The notes under the pieces were generated by a model. It did not search any database. It was given only the letters and a program-made list of their open reading frames with translations, and was not told the DNA's origin. A DNA stretch of 62,044 nucleotides from an uncultured Verrucomicrobiota bacterium (lineage in GTDB: Bacteria; Verrucomicrobiota; Verrucomicrobiia; Limisphaerales; JAHDYP01): positions 2,253 through 64,296 of the forward strand of contig CAYSPU010000001.1 of the NCBI GenBank assembly GCA_964432995.1, in the 5' to 3' direction. Each line of letters opens with the position of its first letter. Position 1 is the stretch's first letter. Of this stretch, positions 20,434-28,176 are shown piece by piece. Made by a program: the position numbers and the translations under genes.

Positions 20434-21822
20434 TTATTTCGCTCCGGTGCCGAGCATCACCACGGGGACCGTCTGCAGCAGGATCCGCAGGTCCAGCCAG
20501 AGTGACCAGTTGTCGATATACTGCAGGTCCAACCGCACCCACTCCTGGAAGTCGGTGATGTTGTTCCGACCGCTGATTTGCCAGAGACAGGTGATGCCCG
20601 GCTTGACGCTCAGCCGTCGCCGGTGCGCCAGGTCGTCGAAACGCGCCACCTCGTCCAGGGGCAGCGGCCGGGGTCCCACCAGGCTCATGTCGCCCCGCAC
20701 CACATTCAGCAACTGCGGGAACTCGTCGATGCTGTATTTCCGCAGCAGGCGTCCCACCCGGGTGATCCTGGGATCGTGACTCACTTTGAAGACCGGGCCG
20801 CTCATCTCGTTGAGCAGCTCGAGTTCGTGTTTCCGCTGCTCGGCATCGCTCACCATGGAGCGGAATTTCAACATGGTGAACGGCCGGCCGTTCAATCCCG
20901 CCCGCTGCTGCCGGAAGAAAACCGGGCCGGGAGAACTCAACTTGATCAGCACCGCGGCCAGAACCAGCACCGGCGATGACACCACCAGCAACAGCAGCGC
21001 CCCCGTCAGATCCATCGTCTGCTTGGCCAGAACCTGCCACGAAGCCCCGGGCGCCGACCGAAACACCAGCATCGGCATGCCGTGAAAATCGTCGATCGTC
21101 GTCTGCGAAATCTGGGTCTTGAAGAAATCCGCCGTGAGCCAGACCTCGACACCTTCCAGCTCGCAGGCGGCAATGACCTTTTCCACGTTGCCGAAGAACG
21201 TGTGCTTGGCGCTCAGCAGGACGCTGTTGATGGCGTGCTCATGCATGAGGTGGACCAACCGCTCGACCGGAACCTCGTTGAGATCCACCTCCGCCACCAC
21301 CTCCGTGCTCTCCGCCGAATGCTCGTGCAACTGCGAGCGGAGCTGGGCCCGGTCCGCCTCCGTTCCCACCAGAATCAGCCGGCGCCGCAACTGCGACTGC
21401 CCGATGCTGCTCCGAATCCAGGACCGGAGCAGCTCCTCCTTGGCCAGGATCAACAGATACGCGATGGGGCCAAACAGCAAAATCACGCCACGAGCCGGCT
21501 GCGCCCGGGTGAGAAACACCACCGTCACCACCGCCATGGTCACCCAGACCATCCCCCACCAAAGCTGCCACAGCGTCTGCCTCCGCGATGGGATCAACGG
21601 CCGGTTGTAAAAGCCCTGCAATTGCAGAAACAGGGGCGCTATCGGGAGGATCACCAGCAACAGCCACGCGTAGTCGCCAAACTCCTGAATGTCCGGACGC
21701 AACAGGAAATCGAACAGCCCGTGAGCTCGCAGCCAGTGCGCCCACCAGAAGCTGAACGCAAAAATGGTGGCGTCGACAAACCTCTGCGCTTGGGAAAGCA
21801 CCTGTCTCTGGCGACGCAACAT
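20434..21822 (-). CDS. polyprenyl glycosylphosphotransferase (WbaP/EpsB-like sugar transferase)
   Basis: Start trimmed to the ATG at 21822 ([17 protein letters not shown]...). Four to five N-terminal TMs. C-terminal bacterial sugar transferase core: [61 protein letters not shown]. Confidence 0.88.
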
Positions 21823-21928
21823 TGGGAAGACACTCTGCTTCAGCCGCCCGGGTCTCGGCAAACCCAAAAAGCGGGCAGCCGGCCTACGGGCAGATCGATC
21901 ACCCGCCCGCTGACCCGTCATCCGCCGC

Positions 21929-21984
21929 GCCGACGTGCCGACGTGCCGACGTGCCGCCGTGCCGACGTGCCGACGTGCCGCCCC
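21929..21984. repeat. tandem 8-nt repeat GCCGACGT, six good units plus degenerate flanks
   Basis: Read directly: gccgacgt gccgacgt gccgacgt gccgccgt gccgacgt gccgacgt gccgcccc. Lies in the divergent spacer between the sugar transferase (start 21822, minus) and the ketosynthase (start 22058, plus). Confidence 0.9.
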
Positions 21985-22057
21985 TCCTGAAGGGACTGGT
22001 TTGACTCGGGCAATCCACCTTCCGTAAGCTCGGAGCCGACATCGACGCGAAGCCCCA

Positions 22058-23299
22058 GTGCTGTATCCGTCCCTCAAAGCCAGTGCCGAAGCCAACCGCG
22101 TGGTCATCACCGGCGTCGGAGTGCTCACCGGCCTGGGCGCAGGCTGGGAGGCCAATGCCGCCGGCTTCCGCCTGGGACGGCCGGCCTTCGCCCCAGTGAC
22201 CCTCTTCGATGTGTCCCGGCAGCGCGCGCGAATCGCTGCCCAAGCCGCACTCCCCGACCCCCTCCCCCACACCCGCCTCGCTCCGCGGCGACTGCAGCGC
22301 ATGGACCGCGCCGCCAGGCTGCTCCTGTGCGCCACCCTTGAGGCCTGGCGCCAATCCGGGTGGGAAACCTCCGATCGTCTCCCCTTCGTTCTCGGCACCA
22401 CCAGCGCCGGCATGTCCAAAGGCGAATCCTACTACCGCCAGAGCCTCTCCACCCCCGGCCGCCCACGGAACCAGGCCGCCCGCGTCCTCGGCTACCAGGC
22501 CCAACGCCAGGTGCTCGACACCGCGGACGCCGTCGGGTTCTCCGGGCCAACCATCCTCATTTCCAACGCCTGTGCTTCCGGCGCGAACGCCCTCGGCCAC
22601 GCCTGGAGCCTCCTCCGCTCCGGACGCGCCCACCAAGCCCTCGCTGGCGGTTACGAAGGCCTCTGCCAGTTGGTCTTCGCCGGCTTCGATTCCCTCCAAG
22701 CCCTATCGCCCACCCCCTGCCGCCCCTTCGACGCCAACCGGGACGGCCTCTCCATCGGCGAAGGTGCGGCCGTCTTCGCCCTCGAGACCCTCGAGCACGC
22801 CTCGCGCCGCAACGCCGCCATCCTCGGCGAAATCGCCGGTTACGCGGCGGCAACGGACATCCACCACCTCACGCAGCCCCACCCGGACGGCGATGCCGCC
22901 CTGACCACCATGACCGCCGCGTGCCGGGCCGCAGGCGTCAGCCCAGAAGCAATCGATTACGTCAACGCCCACGGCACGGGAACGGTCCTGAACGACAGCT
23001 CCGAAGCTGCAGCCATCAACCGCTGGGCCGGCTCCCGCGCGCCCGCTTTGAACGTCAGCTCCACCAAGTCCAGCGTCGGCCACTTGCTCGGTGCCGCCGG
23101 GGCCGTCGAGGCCGCCGTCTGTCTCATGGCGCTGCGCGGACAATGGCTGCCCCCCACCTTGACCACCGTGTCGCCCGATCCCCTCTGCCAGTTCCCGATC
23201 CTCCGGCAGCCGACCGAGGCGCGAGTGGAGGTGGCGCTCTCCAATTCCTTTGGCTTCGGCGGCGCCAACGCCACGCTCATCCTGCGGAGGTGGCCTTGA
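22058..23299 (+). CDS. beta-ketoacyl-ACP synthase (FabF/KAS II-like)
   Basis: RVVITGVGVLTGLG, active-site Cys in NACASGANAL, NAHGTGT and KSSVGHLLGAAG His motifs, SFGFGGANA. GTG start. Confidence 0.88.
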   Translation: MLYPSLKASAEANRVVITGVGVLTGLGAGWEANAAGFRLGRPAFAPVTLFDVSRQRARIAAQAALPDPLPHTRLAPRRLQRMDRAARLLLCATLEAWRQSGWETSDRLPFVLGTTSAGMSKGESYYRQSLSTPGRPRNQAARVLGYQAQRQVLDTADAVGFSGPTILISNACASGANALGHAWSLLRSGRAHQALAGGYEGLCQLVFAGFDSLQALSPTPCRPFDANRDGLSIGEGAAVFALETLEHASRRNAAILGEIAGYAAATDIHHLTQPHPDGDAALTTMTAACRAAGVSPEAIDYVNAHGTGTVLNDSSEAAAINRWAGSRAPALNVSSTKSSVGHLLGAAGAVEAAVCLMALRGQWLPPTLTTVSPDPLCQFPILRQPTEARVEVALSNSFGFGGANATLILRRWP

Positions 23300-24324
23300 G
23301 CGCAATCTGCATTCACGGCGCCGGTGCGGTAACCCCGGCCGGATGGGGTCTCACCGCCCTTGCCGACGCCCTCGCCCGCGGCCAACCCCTTGCCGCCAAT
23401 CCCGTCGAACGCCCCGGCAGCCGCCCCCGCCTCCGCGCCCGCACTGTCCCCCCGGCCGCCCCGCGGCCGGCGTTCCTGGCGCACCCCCGCCTTCGTCGCG
23501 CCAGCCCCATCGCGCACTACACTGTCTTCGCCGCCCTCGAAGCGCTGGGCAGCAGCCCCCTGCCGCCGCCGCCACCCGATCGCCTGGGCGTCGTCTTCTG
23601 CACGGTCTGCGGCAGCATGCGTTACACGAACCGGTTCTTCGCCGAGACGCTGGCGGACCCCGCCACCGCCAGCCCGCTCGTTTTCCCCGAGACCGTCTTC
23701 AACTCGCCCGCCAGCCACCTGGCGGCTTACCTCGCGCGCGCCGGTGTCAATTATACCCTCCTGGGCGACCAGGGAGTCTTCCTCCAGGGCCTGGCCACCG
23801 CCGCCGACTGGCTGGACGACGGAGACGCGGACGGCTGCCTGGTCATTGCCGCTGAGGAAACAGATTGGACGATGGCCGAGGCTCTGCATCTCTTTTCCCG
23901 CCAGGTGGTGCCCAGCGAAGGCGCCGCGGCTCTTTATCTGCGTCGTCTCCCCGGCAGGGACCACCCGCTCCCCTGCCTCGCGGCGGTCACTTCCCCGCAG
24001 CTCTATGCCGGGGACCGTTCCCGCCTCGAAGCCGCCCGCGCCATGCGCGCGGAACTGCCCCCCAGCCAAGCCGAAACGCTGCTCGTTGATGGCCTCCAGG
24101 ACGCTCCCCGCTTCGATCGGGTCGAGGAAACCCTCTGGCACGACTGGCCGTTCGCCCGTCAGTCACCCAAGCGCGTGCTGGGCGAGGGTCTTGCCGCCGC
24201 CACGGGCTGGCAATGCGTTGCCGCCGTCCAGGCCCTCGCCCGCCAAGCCTGCACCTCCGCCATCGTCAGCGCCGTCGGCTGCAACCAGCAAGCCATCGGC
24301 GCCCGGTTCTATGATTCTGCTTGA
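23290..24324 (+). CDS. beta-ketoacyl synthase-like protein lacking the catalytic triad (chain-length-factor-like partner)
   Basis: This is the 3' part of track ORF 22360..24324. The likely start is GTG 23290 (or TTG 23296), overlapping the KS stop at 23297-23299. Begins ICIHGAGAVTPAGWG like a KS N-terminus. I cannot find ACxSG, HGTG or GHxxGAAG motifs (the last position reads GEGLAAATG). Confidence 0.65.
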   Translation: MALSAICIHGAGAVTPAGWGLTALADALARGQPLAANPVERPGSRPRLRARTVPPAAPRPAFLAHPRLRRASPIAHYTVFAALEALGSSPLPPPPPDRLGVVFCTVCGSMRYTNRFFAETLADPATASPLVFPETVFNSPASHLAAYLARAGVNYTLLGDQGVFLQGLATAADWLDDGDADGCLVIAAEETDWTMAEALHLFSRQVVPSEGAAALYLRRLPGRDHPLPCLAAVTSPQLYAGDRSRLEAARAMRAELPPSQAETLLVDGLQDAPRFDRVEETLWHDWPFARQSPKRVLGEGLAAATGWQCVAAVQALARQACTSAIVSAVGCNQQAIGARFYDSA

Positions 24325-25921
24325 ACTCATCTCCAACCTGGCTCTGCTGGTCGCACTCTGCTCCGTGTCTGGCTTCATTGAACACCGCTGGCCGCGGGGC
24401 AGCCGGCGGGCCAATCTGCTTCTGGGCCTCTTGTTCGGTACGGTGGCGGTCATTGGGATCCTGAAGCCCTTTGTCTACAGCCCGGGCCTGATCTTCGACG
24501 GGCGCTCCGTCGTGATCAGCGTCTGCGGACTGTTTTATGGCGGCGGCCCGACATTTGTGGCGGCGGCGATGGCCATCATCTGCCGCGCCGCGCTCGGCGG
24601 GACGGGGATGTGGATGGGGGTCCTGGTGACGCTGTGTTCCGCCGGCTTGGGCATTCATGCCTATCGGCTGCGGCGGGAAGGCCGCTTCCACGCCGGTGCG
24701 GGCGGTTTGCTCGGTTTCGGTTTTGTGGTCCACCTGGCCATGCTGGCGATGACCGTGGCACTGCCTCCGGACCAGATCCTCCCGGTGCTGCGGCGCATCA
24801 GCTTGCCGGTAATCCTGACCTACCCGGTCGCCACCTTGCTGATCGGCAGCATCCTCGTGGCCGGGGAGGAACGCGCCCAACTCCTGGCAGACGTGCGAAC
24901 CAGCGAAGCCAAATACCGGCACCTGTACGAATGCCTCATCGACGGATTCGTCGGGGTGGACATGCAGGGTCGGCTGCAGCTATGGAACCCGGCCTTCGAG
25001 GCCATATTGGGATACTCGGAGTCGGAACTGCGCACCCTCACCTACCAGGACCTCACCCCGGAACGCTGGCACGCAAGCGAGGCCAGGATCGTCGCCGAGC
25101 AGGTGCTGGTTCGTGGCTACTCGGACCTCTATGAGAAGGAGTATCGTCGCAGGGATGGGCGGGTGTTCCCGGTCGAACTGCGCACCCACCTCCTGCGAGA
25201 TGCCTCCGGTCAGCCTGTCGGTATGTGGGCCATCGTCAGGGACATCACCGAACGAAAGCAGGCCGAAGCCAACCTCCGCGCCTCCCTCGAAGACAAAGAA
25301 ATCCTCCTCAAAGAGATCCACCACCGCGTCAAGAACAACCTCCAAGTGGTCAGCAGCCTCCTGAACCTCGAAATGCGCCAGATCGACCACCCCGCAGCCC
25401 AGGCCTTTCTCCGTGACGCCCAAAACCGAGTGCACTCCATGGCGCTCCTCCACGAAACTCTCTATCGTTCGGAGACCATCTCCCGCGTCAACTTCCCATC
25501 GTACGTCCGGACCCTATGCGAGCATATCGCCCGGTCTCACGCGGGCGACGGCCGGCATGTGCACATCCGTCACCGCCTCGACGACGTCCACCTGGACCTC
25601 GATCAAGCCGTGACCCTCGGCCTCATCATCAACGAGCTGGTGTCCAATTCCTTCAAGCACGCCTTCCCCAACCGACGCCCCGGCACCATCAGCCTGAACC
25701 TGGAACCCTCCGACACGAACCGCCTCCGACTGCGTATCGAGGACGACGGCGTCGGCCTCCCCGCAGACTTCGCCCCCACCCAACTCACCACTCTCGGCCT
25801 CCGGCTCGTGGACAGTCTCGTCAGCCAACTCGGCGGTTCCTGGAAACACGCGCCTGCACCGGGCACGGCTTGGGACATCGAGTTTCCCCTCCGACACCCC
25901 GTGCGGGAGAACGCCGGTTGA
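24311..25921 (+). CDS. sensor histidine kinase: LytS-type 5-TM sensor, PAS domain, HisKA_2 and HATPase
   Basis: This is the 3' part of track ORF 23360..25921. ATG 24311 overlaps the upstream stop (24322-24324). Five to six N-terminal TMs. PAS segment (YRHLYECLIDGFVGVDMQGRLQLWNPAFEAILGY). H-box EIHHRVKNNLQVVSSLL. ATP-lid region INELVSNSFKHAF...DDGVGLP. Confidence 0.85.
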   Translation: MILLELISNLALLVALCSVSGFIEHRWPRGSRRANLLLGLLFGTVAVIGILKPFVYSPGLIFDGRSVVISVCGLFYGGGPTFVAAAMAIICRAALGGTGMWMGVLVTLCSAGLGIHAYRLRREGRFHAGAGGLLGFGFVVHLAMLAMTVALPPDQILPVLRRISLPVILTYPVATLLIGSILVAGEERAQLLADVRTSEAKYRHLYECLIDGFVGVDMQGRLQLWNPAFEAILGYSESELRTLTYQDLTPERWHASEARIVAEQVLVRGYSDLYEKEYRRRDGRVFPVELRTHLLRDASGQPVGMWAIVRDITERKQAEANLRASLEDKEILLKEIHHRVKNNLQVVSSLLNLEMRQIDHPAAQAFLRDAQNRVHSMALLHETLYRSETISRVNFPSYVRTLCEHIARSHAGDGRHVHIRHRLDDVHLDLDQAVTLGLIINELVSNSFKHAFPNRRPGTISLNLEPSDTNRLRLRIEDDGVGLPADFAPTQLTTLGLRLVDSLVSQLGGSWKHAPAPGTAWDIEFPLRHPVRENAG

Positions 25922-25934
25922 ACTGCGGCCAGAT

Positions 25935-25980
25935 CGCGACCGCGCGCCAGATTAGCTCTGCGGGGCGTTCCGCGGTCGCG
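25935..25980. promoter_or_regulatory. perfect 10-bp inverted repeat (CGCGACCGCG ... CGCGGTCGCG) with a 26-nt spacer
   Basis: Read directly, 14 nt after the kinase stop and about 145 nt upstream of the ACP start. Could be a terminator-like stem or an operator. Confidence 0.4.
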
Positions 25981-26125
25981 GGACGCGCCCCAAAACGCCG
26001 AGGAGGCGGATGGGGAACAGTGTCAAGCGGCGCTGGCGCGCCGCGCCGCCGGTCATCCCCCATTTCTTGCTTGTGCGGCGTTCGGCCAGCCGACAGGCTG
26101 GGGGGCGCCGCGGCGGCGAGCAACC

Positions 26126-26410
26126 ATGGAACCACAGGCGCCCCTCAAGGAACGCATCAAAGGCATGCTGGTCGAGCAACTCATGCTTCAGCTCCGCCCC
26201 GCGGAAATCGGCGACGACCAGGCACTGTTCGGCCCGGGCAGCCTTGGCCTCGACTCCGTGGACGCCCTGCAGTTGGTCGTCATGCTGGACAAGCACTTCG
26301 GCCTGAAGATCGCCGATCCGGCGGCCGCGCGGGAGATCCTCCAGAACGTCAGCACCATCACCGCCGCCGTCGAAAGGCACGCGGGGAACACCGCCGGAGC
26401 CCCGCAATAG
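26126..26410 (+). CDS. acyl carrier protein
   Basis: 94 aa. Phosphopantetheine-attachment motif LGLDSVDALQLV in a four-helix-sized protein. Confidence 0.85.
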   Translation: MEPQAPLKERIKGMLVEQLMLQLRPAEIGDDQALFGPGSLGLDSVDALQLVVMLDKHFGLKIADPAAAREILQNVSTITAAVERHAGNTAGAPQ

Positions 26411-26435
26411 GGATCAGGCGGAACGGGGACCGCCC

Positions 26436-27260
26436 ATGACCAATCAACTCGAGACCCTCGACCAGATCCGCCGCACGGCGATCGACTTGAGCATCCAGTT
26501 CGGGCCCAAGGTCCTTGTCGCCACCGCCATTCTGGTGGCGGGCTTCTTCACCGGCCGGTGGGTGGCCGGCATCCTCGATCGCACCTTGAGCCGGTTCGAA
26601 CTCGAACCGCCGGTCCGCCTCCTCTTGATGCGCATCACGCGCATCCTGATTCTGGCGCTGTTTGCCATCATGGCGTTGCAGAATCTTGGAGTGGAACTGC
26701 TGCCGCTCATCGCCGGTCTCGGCGTCGCCGGCGCCGGCATCGCCCTCGCCATGCAGGGTGTCCTCGGCAACATCGTCGCCGGCCTCACCATCATCTTCAC
26801 CCGCCCGTTCCGCGTCGGGGATTATGTCTCCATGGTCGGCGTCGAAGGCCGGGTCGCGGTCATCGACATCTTCACCACCACCCTCGCCCACTTCGACCTC
26901 TCGCGCGTCGTGGTCCCCAACCGCAAGATCATCGGCGAGATCCTGCACAACTACGGCCAGATCCGGCAGCTCGATGTCCAGGTGGGCGTGGCCTACGAGA
27001 CCGACCTCAACCGCGCCTTGGCCATCGTCCACCGCACACTCGCCGCCAACTCGATGGTGCTGCAGGACCCGGCGCCGCTTTTCGGCGTGCAGCTCGTCGG
27101 GGACTCCGCGATCCGTCTCGCGGTCAGACCGTGGGTGAATGTCCCGGATTTCGTGGTCGCGGGCGCCCAAGTGAACAAGGCCATCATCGAGGCCTTCCGT
27201 GCCGAGGGCATCACGATGCCCTTGCCGCAGCGGGAAATCCGAATCCTCAGCGGCGGCTGA
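26436..27260 (+). CDS. small-conductance mechanosensitive channel (MscS family)
   Basis: Three N-terminal TMs. Pore-helix and beta-domain motif GLGVAGAGIALAMQGVLGNIVAGLTIIFTRPFRVGDYV; typical 274-aa size. Confidence 0.85.
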   Translation: MTNQLETLDQIRRTAIDLSIQFGPKVLVATAILVAGFFTGRWVAGILDRTLSRFELEPPVRLLLMRITRILILALFAIMALQNLGVELLPLIAGLGVAGAGIALAMQGVLGNIVAGLTIIFTRPFRVGDYVSMVGVEGRVAVIDIFTTTLAHFDLSRVVVPNRKIIGEILHNYGQIRQLDVQVGVAYETDLNRALAIVHRTLAANSMVLQDPAPLFGVQLVGDSAIRLAVRPWVNVPDFVVAGAQVNKAIIEAFRAEGITMPLPQREIRILSGG

Positions 27261-27274
27261 GACCGCCAAACGGA

Positions 27275-27990
27275 TTACATGGCCAGGCCGCCGTCGACCA
27301 CCAGCACCTGGCCGGTCACGTAACGGCCGGCCGGCCCCGCGAGGTATAGGGCGGCCAGCGCGATGTCCTCCGGTTGGCCGAGGCGGTTCAGCGGGATCTT
27401 CTGCAGCATCCCCTTGCGCAGTTCCTCACTGAGCACCGCCGTCATGTCGGTTTCGATGAAGCCCGGGGCGATGGCGTTGACGGTGATCCCCCGTGAACCC
27501 AGCTCAGCCCGGCCTTGCTGGCGGCGTAGTTGCACTGGCCCGCATTGCCGATCAACCCAATGATCGACGACACGTTGATGATGCGCCCCGAACGCTGCTT
27601 CACGAACGCCAGCGCCAGCGCCTTGGTCACCAAAAACGCCCCCTTCAAATTCGTGTCCAGCACCGTGTCCCAATCGGCATCGCTCATCCGCATCAACAAC
27701 GTGTCGCGCGTCACCCCGGCGTTGTTCACCAGGATGTCCACCCGACCCGCCTCCGCCAGGGCCTTCCCGATCGTGGCCGTGACCGCGGCCGCGTCGGCAA
27801 CATCCACGGCGTGGGCCCAAGCCCGCCGGCCGGCGGCCCGCACCTCCGCCGCGACTTTCTCGGAGTTCTCCGCCGTCCTCGAGAGGCAGATGACAGCGGC
27901 GCCTTCGGCGGCGAAGCGCAGGGCGATGGCGCGGCCAGTGCCGCGGCCGGCCCCGGTGACCAGAGCGATTTGGTTTTCAAGTTGACCCAT
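27275..27990 (-). pseudogene. fabG: 3-oxoacyl-ACP reductase interrupted by a frame-breaking internal deletion
   Basis: N-terminal 162 aa sit in one frame (MGQLENQIALVTGAGRGTGR...NNAGVTRD...NYAASKAGL, track ORF 27442..28053). C-terminal 76 aa sit in another frame (ELGSRGITVNAIAPGFIETDM...VVDGGLAM, track ORF 27275..27820). The junction is at about 27505. The nine residues normally between them (IGF.KSLAR in FabG) are absent. Confidence 0.8.
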
Positions 27991-28176
27991 AGCGGCCGCC
28001 TTTCTCCGGCGTTCGGCGAGCGTTGTCAATGCCGGCCCACCAGCACGGCACAACCCGAACCGGCGGCCAAGACGGCCAGCGTCGTCGGGGGCGCATCCAC
28101 CATCGCGCCAGCGTCACTGATCGCACCTTCCGCGTTCAGGTTGCACACGTGGCGCCGTGGCTGGTAGGTTCGGCGC

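Follow-up and report, generated by a model that had tools for sequence, protein, structure and literature searches.

In Cluster I of anammox bacteria, a FabF-like beta-ketoacyl-ACP synthase (KS) and a catalytically dead partner act as a heterodimer that decarboxylates malonyl-ACP, and the partner, amxFabFmut, has Val at the catalytic Cys column (bioRxiv 10.64898/2026.05.19.726425). Pairs of a KS and a chain-length factor or inactive partner are also found in the ishigamide highly reducing type II polyketide synthase (PKS), in which Iga11/Iga12 (PDB 6kxd-6kxf) act iteratively on a reduced chain together with an ACP and a FabG-type ketoreductase (KR); in the aryl-polyene pathway of the Gram-negative E. 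coli CFT073, where ApeO/ApeC are accompanied by dedicated ACPs; and in aromatic type II PKSs such as actinorhodin KS/chain-length factor (act KS/CLF) and AntD/AntE, where the partner of the active KS is without the catalytic Cys. As for membrane sensor kinases, the LytS/BtsS type joins a 5TMR-LYT membrane module to a His_kinase (PF06580) core and has a LytTR regulator alongside, and HWE/HisKA_2 kinases commonly have no response regulator encoded close by.

Here, we have analyzed a window of 62,044 nt (the term denotes the whole stretch of DNA) from an uncultured Verrucomicrobiota bacterium, which holds genes for a KS, a KS-like protein (KSL), a sensor kinase and an ACP (Table 1). All genes named in the original prediction were present at their positions, and its account of the layout (an intact Cys-His-His KS overlapping a KS-fold protein by 4-10 nt, a 14-nt overlap of KSL and kinase, an ACP after a further gap, then MscS and a broken convergent fabG) was confirmed by alignment and coordinates. 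The KS stop is overlapped by the KSL start by 10 nt if a GTG start is used or by 4 nt if a TTG start is used, the kinase ATG lies 14 nt ahead of the KSL stop, and 204 nt separate the kinase stop from the ACP gene. A sigma-70 promoter scan of positions 21700-27400 gave no match, a result that is uninformative for this phylum. A 10-bp inverted repeat 3' of the kinase was rejected as a terminator, as its fold energy is no better than that of shuffled sequences (z -0.28) and it is without a T tract. Dehydratase, thioesterase and acyltransferase genes were not found among the ten neighbouring ORFs scanned (approximately 19.4-31.4 kb), and the pathway is indeed incomplete in the window, as had been proposed; an AMP-ligase gene and a conserved partner gene, U263 (function unassigned), are located on another contig of this genome (C38).

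Table 1. Features of the KS-KSL-kinase-ACP region (positions are those of the window)
Feature	Position	Strand	Basis
KS, active beta-ketoacyl-ACP synthase	22058-23299	+	PF00109 and PF02801 (E ~1e-33)
KSL, KS-like, chain-length-factor-like partner, 344 aa	23290-24324	+	Alignment, AlphaFold model, Foldseek
Lineage-specific segment, apparently inserted: kinase gene and ~136 nt of 3' flank; right boundary approximate	24310-26057	+	Left junction and start of KR relic; absent in relatives
Orphan membrane sensor histidine kinase	24311-25921	+	Pfam and NCBIfam
Putative relic of the 3' end of the lost cassette KR: ATTTCTTGCTTGT, 18 nt, ACAGGCT (= codons RFLAC...ITGS)	26062-26099	+	Spacing as in intact KR genes
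Dedicated cassette ACP	26126-26410	+	PF00550; serine in GLDSVDAL
MscS	26436-27260		Pfam
Convergent fabG, frameshifted, ~9 residues missing after NYAASKAGL	27275-28113	-

The KS retains all catalytic residues in an alignment with E. coli FabF: Cys (NACASG), His (NAHGT), Lys (STKSS) and His (VGHLLG). It was rejected as a housekeeping FabF on three grounds: it scores 333.8 bits against the FabF equivalog model TIGR03150, under the cut-off of 493.75; a separate KS on contig C228 groups with E. coli FabF and is the FabF orthologue of this genome; and the cassette is missing in 18 of 40 relatives from the same order. In one combined KS/KSL tree, the cassette KS proteins form a clade of their own with 100% support, apart from FabF.

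In KSL, the same alignment places Gln at the Cys column and Asp and Glu at the two His columns, with Lys kept, so the earlier statement that none of the three catalytic motifs is present was right as far as the triad is concerned. Its sole Pfam match is PF13723, at 17.6 bits and thus under the cut-off of 25. The AlphaFold model has a thiolase fold (pLDDT 87, pTM 0.90), and its best Foldseek matches are Iga12 (6kxd_B), act CLF (1tqy_B) and AntE (6smo_E), with Iga12 at the top (E 6.7e-18, TM 0.80) in spite of a sequence identity of 19%. Among 42 members of the KSL family the Cys column is never Cys, being occupied by Pro (23), Gln (8), Asp (4), Ala (4) or Ser (3); the idea of a chain-length-factor 'KS-Q' with Gln in this position holds for the KSL of the window and is not a property of the family. 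Alignment and predicted fold thus support KSL as a catalytically dead, chain-length-factor-like partner of KS. The conserved overlap of 4-10 nt in more than 100 loci, together with the matching of nearest relatives between the KS and KSL clades of the tree, suggests that the two proteins may form a physical heterodimer. The locus has the general make-up of a KS/chain-length-factor type II system, namely a KS with an active triad, an adjacent partner without the catalytic Cys, and an ACP with a phosphopantetheine serine. The separate KS clade and the FabF orthologue on C228 support the original prediction that KS, KSL and ACP are a specialised set distinct from the housekeeping one.

Across the Limisphaerales/Pedosphaera group of Verrucomicrobiota the cassette is widespread, and its KS/chain-length-factor-like pairs constitute a clade that is so far uncharacterised. 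Strong KSL matches were detected in 22 of 40 genomes of the same order and in 5 of 150 genomes sampled evenly across the remainder of the phylum, and 548 relatives could be confirmed in species genomes. KS-KSL pairs were analyzed in 101 related verrucomicrobial loci (a set of 80, a set of 20, and locus L053). The set of 80 comprises 43 loci with the order KS-KSL-KR-ACP, 14 with KS-KSL-ACP, the layout left after loss of the KR, and truncated or variant loci as the remainder; none of them has a kinase, and the same is true of the 20-locus set and L053, so that the order KS-KSL-kinase-ACP occurs in 0 of 101. The ACP is conserved beside the KS-KSL pair, and the cassette ACPs of relatives share 54-76% identity with that of the window. 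AMP-ligase, GT2, radical-SAM and FAD enzyme genes are often found beside the cassette in relatives, the B12-radical-SAM genes that adjoin it in some of them scoring 88 bits against TIGR04072 (below the cut-off of 360), and three recurrent neighbour classes (U263, U131 and Sec200) have no Pfam match. KSL family members are annotated as 'hypothetical protein' or under the generic name '3-oxoacyl-ACP synthase', and many are without a precomputed Pfam domain; a literature search found no paper on a KS/KSL/ACP cassette in Verrucomicrobia. The comparison defines a large unannotated KS/dead-KS/(KR)/ACP cassette family in Limisphaerales-type Verrucomicrobiota, carried by more than 500 species genomes, which is not surprising in itself and offers a sensible starting point for lipid discovery in a phylum with few cultured members.

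The nearest studied analogues of this family are the anammox FabF2/FabFmut pair and the highly reducing type II PKSs. Among the PDB sequence matches of KS, chain B of 9s5h, an entry that we take to be, probably, anammox amxFabF2/amxFabFmut with amxACP, ranks third (243 bits). For KSL, chain C of this entry ranks second (E 2.5e-4); the chain carries Val at the Cys column and has the stretch FPxTVxNxPAS in common with KSL. A literature search for the structure code 9S5H returned nothing relevant. As in anammox Cluster I, a FabF-like KS adjoins a FabF-fold partner without Cys-His-His, with a dedicated ACP and a fatty-acid-like rather than aromatic context, in a member of the PVC superphylum; the B12-radical-SAM genes next to the cassette in some relatives are a further likeness. 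However, the dead partner lies upstream of the KS in Cluster I, whereas the cassette order is KS then KSL; the anammox partner has 412 aa and KSL 344 aa (~70 residues shorter), with remote similarity between the two; and the substitutions of the KSL family (Pro/Gln, Asp, Glu) differ from those of the anammox partner. Neither amxFabZ nor the radical-SAM genes adjacent in Cluster I have counterparts among the window genes scanned, the cassette has no FabZ homologue, and there is no evidence for ladderane-type products of the cassette. The ishigamide PKS shares with it a KS and chain-length factor, an ACP, a FabG-type KR and iterative action on a reduced chain, but the cassette KS is nearer to FabF than to Iga11, the cassette is without a dehydratase, and the phyla are different.

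The third gene of the window's unit is the exception to this conserved arrangement. The kinase contains 5TM-5TMR_LYT, PAS, HisKA_2 (100.1 bits; cut-off 22.3) and HATPase_c (44.2 bits; cut-off 26.4) domains, with the H-box EIHHRVKNN present, and alignments with its homologues begin at residues 1-4, in support of the ATG at 24311 as its start. It thus resembles LytS/BtsS sensors in its 5TMR-LYT membrane module and differs from them in its core, HisKA_2; with PAS, a HisKA_2/HATPase core and no adjacent response regulator, it resembles HWE/HisKA_2 orphan kinases. The genome has 115 receiver-domain matches, none of them on the 64-kb contig that holds the window (C1), in agreement with the original prediction that no response regulator is present there; the locus is therefore not a classical two-component operon with a regulator beside the kinase. 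No orthologue of the kinase was detected in 40 relatives, and among 5.8 billion protein clusters the best full-length match is 49% identical, with none above that. Homologues of the same architecture sit in unrelated contexts and, in the contexts read, never beside KS genes. Because the ORF is intact with all motifs, the kinase is under selection for some function.

Both edges of the kinase segment point to insertion. DNA homology to the closest relative (KSL 81% identical), whose contigs reach 291 nt past KSL and then end, stops at 24309, one base before the kinase ATG (24311), and the last four codons and the stop of KSL (24310-24324) are supplied by inserted DNA. At the other edge, a putative KR relic starts 64 nt upstream of the ACP gene. 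Its two-part pattern has the spacing that the intact KR genes of relatives show; the 5.77-Mb genome contains it a single time, and 24 of the 101 related loci have it as well. In a comparison of a DNA profile of KR 3' ends with the window, the relic reached only E 6.5, and an unrelated gene, the broken fabG, was matched at E 3e-7; the relic is short, and it was recognised from the two-part pattern in combination with spacing and location. Clearer KR relics are present in several other KR-less loci (L064, L085, L091, L114 and L121), and no cassette-type KR was found elsewhere in the genome, the best match being 41% identical. A functional DNA element was considered as a cause of the persistence of the relics and rejected, since across 54 KR genes the third-codon-position entropy of the final 26 codons (1.46) is practically that of the rest of the gene (1.49). 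In another lineage (L054), the same slot is occupied by two unrelated ORFs.

These observations give the following history. The ancestral cassette had a FabG-type KR between KSL and ACP. KS and KSL would form a heterodimer of the KS/chain-length-factor type that uses malonyl units in loading and lengthening acyl chains on the dedicated ACP. Where a KR is available, every round would end with 3-hydroxyacyl-ACP, except if the housekeeping FabZ and FabI completed the cycle. In the family of this genome, the KR was deleted with ~40-75 nt of its 3' end left ahead of the ACP gene; then, in one population, a complete and apparently intact orphan HWE/HisKA_2 kinase gene with its 3' flank landed exactly at the scar. 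The KSL frame now reads four codons into the insert, which creates the 14-nt overlap. The kinase is probably co-transcribed with KS-KSL. We consider this explanation as a whole, from the conserved cassette and its presumed function to KR loss and the landing of the kinase, very likely to be correct. Judged from the junctions, the insertion site of the kinase was the scar of the deleted KR, and the unusual order of the genes seems to be accidental and local rather than the mark of a designed unit.

The best-surviving alternative, although an unlikely one, is that the kinase has been functionally recruited, being co-transcribed and translationally coupled with KS-KSL and sensing, through 5TMR-LYT, the lipid product or an envelope state altered by it. 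Several features would fit such recruitment: the genes share a strand and the 14-nt overlap, no terminator-like site was seen between KSL and the kinase, kinase domains and H-box are intact, all three assemblies of the population show this order, and a PrsK kinase gene lies divergently beside another ACP-KS-KSL set on contig C218 of the same genome. However, the kinase is missing in all 101 related loci and has no orthologue, its homologues do not adjoin KS genes in the contexts read, and the overlap is accounted for by the insertion junction itself, since the junctions show insertion at the KR scar and make the overlap a by-product. Nothing points to the kinase having evolved to work with the cassette, and the earlier view of it as an integral third cistron implying stress-coupled synthesis or product sensing is not borne out; the order proved unique to one population, of which two further assemblies share it, and the reading of the locus as an unusual unit falls with this. 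The chief value of the analysis is hence corrective, in that overlap and shared strand mimicked a designed KS-CLF-kinase unit where comparison with 101 loci shows a recent insertion. A later co-option, in which the cassette promoter would drive expression of the 5TMR-LYT kinase and the membrane domain of the latter would sense the specialised lipid made by the cassette, is quite improbable in our judgement. If true, an orphan kinase would have become tied to the regulation of a lipid pathway only very recently, the lipid coming from a PVC KS/KSL system distantly related to anammox FabF2/FabFmut.

It is still less likely that KS, KSL and ACP are one piece of an already described kind of pathway, either aryl-polyene synthesis or an aromatic type II PKS. 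Their KS/dead-KS/ACP make-up, the weak PF13723 match and the chain-length-factor-like fold of KSL would suit this, act CLF and AntE being among the top fold matches, and so would the GT2 and AMP-ligase genes near the cassette in some relatives, which together with KR recall aryl-polyene clusters. Against an aryl-polyene origin, ApeO groups with the KS of contig C218 and not with the fully supported clade of cassette KS proteins, and ApeC (240 aa) is on a long branch distant from KSL; the tree thus places the pair outside the ApeO/ApeC lineages. The ApeI/ApeP, ApeR, MMPL, LolA-like and DUF3261 genes are absent from the window genes scanned, and neither they nor an export gene were identified among the recurrent neighbours of relatives, three classes of which are without a Pfam match. 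In PDB sequence searches, KS scores higher with FabF (271 bits) than with Iga11 (196), act KS (194) or 6qsp chain A (165), which is presumably an ApeO. This FabF-like character also separates it from aromatic PKSs, as does the Cys column of KSL, where the Gln of aromatic chain-length factors is not conserved, and no cyclase or aromatase gene was found among the window neighbours scanned or the Pfam-matched recurrent neighbours of the 101 loci, again with the exception of the three unmatched classes.

Finally, an assembly chimera joining a kinase locus to the cassette is hardly credible: the assembly is fragmented and of metagenome type (415 contigs, 85% complete) and the junction is the very point at which homology to the nearest relative breaks off, but cassette genes flank the kinase on both sides, so that two compensating mis-joins would be needed, both junctions are spanned by a JGI metagenome contig (L140, 99.97% over 3748 nt) and a MAG contig (L141, 100%), and the presence of the same order in two other assemblies of the population shows that it is not an artefact.

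The genes named in the original prediction, including a broken fabG next to MscS, were all found in the window (see the table), and the same arrangement was recovered in other assemblies. The stretch from the active ketosynthase (KS)/dead KS-like partner (KSL) through the kinase and carrier protein (ACP) to MscS is spanned by two further contigs, one from a JGI metagenome (3748 nt, one mismatch) and one from a second metagenome-assembled genome (MAG; 3153 nt, identical). The order is thus real and not an assembly artefact; since both contigs derive from this same population, they validate the assembly but carry no evidence of evolutionary conservation.

Features of the cassette region in the window
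Feature	Position	Strand	Description
Sugar transferase/KS spacer	21822-22058		holds an 8-nt tandem repeat
KS, 413 aa	22058-23299	+	ketosynthase
KSL, 344 aa	23290-24324	+	KS-like protein
Kinase, 536 aa	24311-25921	+	membrane histidine kinase; 5TMR-LYT, PAS, HisKA_2 and HATPase_c domains
Relic	26062-26099		putative remnant of the 3' end of a lost ketoreductase (KR)
ACP, 94 aa	26126-26410		
MscS	26436-27260		
fabG	27275-28113	-	broken, convergent

Alignment with Escherichia coli FabF, FabB, ApeO and ApeR bore out the original reading of an intact KS with a catalytically dead partner, as KS retains Cys, His, Lys and His, and KSL has Gln, Asp, Lys and Glu in these columns. Among 42 members of the KSL family, the Cys column is occupied by Pro (23), Gln (8), Asp (4), Ala (4) or Ser (3). 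Asp replaces the first His in 37 and Glu the second in 36, and the catalytic Lys is retained in 35. KS is nearest to FabF by sequence in the PDB (1j3n, Thermus FabF, 271 bits), followed by 9s5h_B (243 bits), 6kxd_A (Iga11, 196 bits), 1tqy_A (act KS, 194 bits) and 6qsp_A, which we take to be an ApeO (165 bits), and it falls below the FabF equivalog cut-off (334 versus 494 bits). The only Pfam match noted for KSL, PF13723 at 17.6 bits, is under the cut-off. Its AlphaFold model, built with 27 homologues as input, is confident (pLDDT 87, pTM 0.90), and the chain-length-factor chains of Iga11/Iga12, actinorhodin KS/CLF and AntD/AntE rank ahead of or among FabFs as its top structural matches, which supports the proposed chain-length-factor-like role. 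A maximum-likelihood tree places the cassette KSs in a clade of their own with full support, separate from the group of E. coli FabF and the KS on contig C228 of this genome; the KSLs make up another fully supported clade, on the side of ApeC and the genome's other dead partners.

Of 40 genomes from the same order, 22 gave strong KSL matches, against only 5 in a set of 150 sampled evenly across the phylum, and a species-genome collection contains 548 confirmed KSL relatives, whose records name Limisphaerales, Pedosphaera, Verrucomicrobiales, Luteolibacter, Phragmitibacter and others. When the window's proteins were mapped onto 101 KSL loci (6-8 kb on each side of KSL), the usual layout was KS-KSL-KR-ACP, found exactly so in 43 loci of one 80-locus subset; 14 of the same 80 have KS-KSL-ACP, and the remainder are cut by contig ends or are minor variants. 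In the window's family, the four other genomes likewise have KS-KSL-ACP, as does the locus of P0007, a relative whose KSL is 62% identical. The cassette is a new, uncharacterised KS/chain-length-factor system, and since none of the 101 related loci has a kinase in it, the idea of a conserved KS/KSL/kinase/ACP unit is not supported.

Several observations indicate that the kinase is an insertion. No full-length orthologue was found in 40 relatives, and the best full-length homologue among 5.8 billion protein clusters is 49% identical; two homologues of the same architecture sit amid unrelated genes, one of them adjoining another kinase near a sigma-54 regulator. Alignment with the cassette's nearest relative (KSL 81% identical, DNA ~82%) runs to position 24309 and then stops, one base short of the kinase ATG at 24311. 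Up to this point the KSL frame reads ...AIGARF; beyond it, the first codons of the kinase gene supply YDSA-stop, so the predicted 14-nt KSL/kinase overlap is real but a product of the junction. Two separate contig records of that relative from different samples (L051 and L052) break off at an identical point, 291 nt past KSL; this terminal stretch is non-coding, is unrelated to the window and carries a GC-rich hairpin (ATTGCGCCCCGA...CGGGGCGCAAT), and it may be a repeat element situated at the same junction. The KSL-to-ACP slot tolerates other insertions: in a Limisphaerales MAG (L054, 7165-8997), two unrelated ORFs of 387 and 219 aa, whose starts resemble signal peptides, lie between KSL and KR, in the slot that the kinase fills in the window, and L068 and L087 have ~400 extra nt there. 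A recent functional co-option of the kinase by the cassette appears improbable; the one point in favour of such co-option is that the two are probably co-transcribed. The absence of a response regulator near the kinase was upheld (no receiver domain on the whole 64-kb contig versus 115 in the genome), yet it is not unusual, as an orphan state is ordinary for the HWE/HisKA_2 class.

Traces of a lost KR precede ACP. The relic, 64 nt before the ACP start, reads ATTTCTTGCTTGT-N18-ACAGGCT; relatives whose KR is intact have both blocks, identically spaced, as the codons for RFLAC...ITGS, ~25 codons from the KR stop and ~76 nt ahead of the ACP start. Across the 5.77-Mb genome the two-block pattern has a single occurrence, and 24 of the 101 loci contain it; its 13-nt half matches once in the window versus 0.07 expected, and no cassette-type KR is present elsewhere in the genome. 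KR was lost repeatedly, and its remains are plainer in KR-less loci of other families (KSL-ACP spacers of L064, L085, L091, L114, L121 and others). Several of these join the KSL 3' end (..GARF) directly to the KR tail (..RFLAC), leaving the last 40-75 nt of KR before ACP, which suggests recurrent deletion through this short similarity. In the window's family, ATTTnnnnCTTGT and ACAGGCT persist though no longer coding, and they are possibly a promoter for ACP. The ancestor would thus have been KS-KSL-KR-ACP, KR would then have been lost in the window's family, and in this lineage alone the kinase with ~136 nt of 3' flank would later have entered the KR scar.

KS and KSL would, by analogy, pair as a heterodimer: KSL would shape the acyl tunnel, and KS would carry out the condensation of malonyl-ACP units on the dedicated ACP. 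In anammox bacteria, a FabF homologue and a second one whose triad is dead assemble into a heterodimer that decarboxylates malonyl-ACP only when both subunits are present (bioRxiv 10.64898/2026.05.19.726425). PDB 9s5h ranks near the top of the sequence matches for KS as well as KSL, and its chain C has Val at the Cys column, as given for amxFabFmut (bioRxiv 10.64898/2026.05.19.726425), which makes it a candidate for that complex. As the cassette includes a KR and lacks both dehydratase and enoyl reductase, it would yield either a 3-hydroxyacyl chain or a chain that housekeeping enzymes finish; without a KR of its own, the cassette of the window's family would need to borrow this step or omit it. 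Frequent neighbours in other families are a Trp-halogenase-like FAD enzyme (27 loci), GT2 (26), a HydE/PylB-like radical-SAM enzyme (23), a secreted 200-aa protein (21), AMP-ligase (16), an unknown 263-aa lipoprotein-like protein (12) and B12-radical-SAM enzymes, and such gene contexts point to a modified acyl or glycolipid product.

KS is flanked upstream by a divergent polyprenyl-phosphate sugar transferase, epimerase and PilM/Amuc_1100-type module. The first two are common to the relatives' loci G002, G004 and P0007 and the contigs of P0006, so that the sugar transferase/KS pairing is conserved across the window's family. Downstream, the fabG frame ends after NYAASKAGL and restarts in another frame at ELGSRGITVN with ~9 residues missing; the break may be an assembly error, and among the contigs fetched no independent one spans it. 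This gene (34-38% identical) was ruled out as the cassette KR.

The AMP-ligase and 263-aa protein genes of this genome are on contig C38, ~7 kb from a second, larger, type II-like KS/KSL cluster (C38:1-18600), which contains a B12-radical-SAM gene, two KS/dead-KS pairs, an ACP, a GcvT-like aminomethyltransferase, a YbgC-type thioesterase, FabG, FabD and an acetyltransferase-aminotransferase fusion. On contig C218 (4133-10004), a PrsK-type XrtA/PEP-CTERM histidine kinase (438 bits, above cut-off) divergently adjoins an ACP-KS-dead-KS set, whose KS groups with ApeO, and a polysaccharide deacetylase; polysaccharide genes lie beside two of the genome's KS/KSL sets, this one and that of the window.
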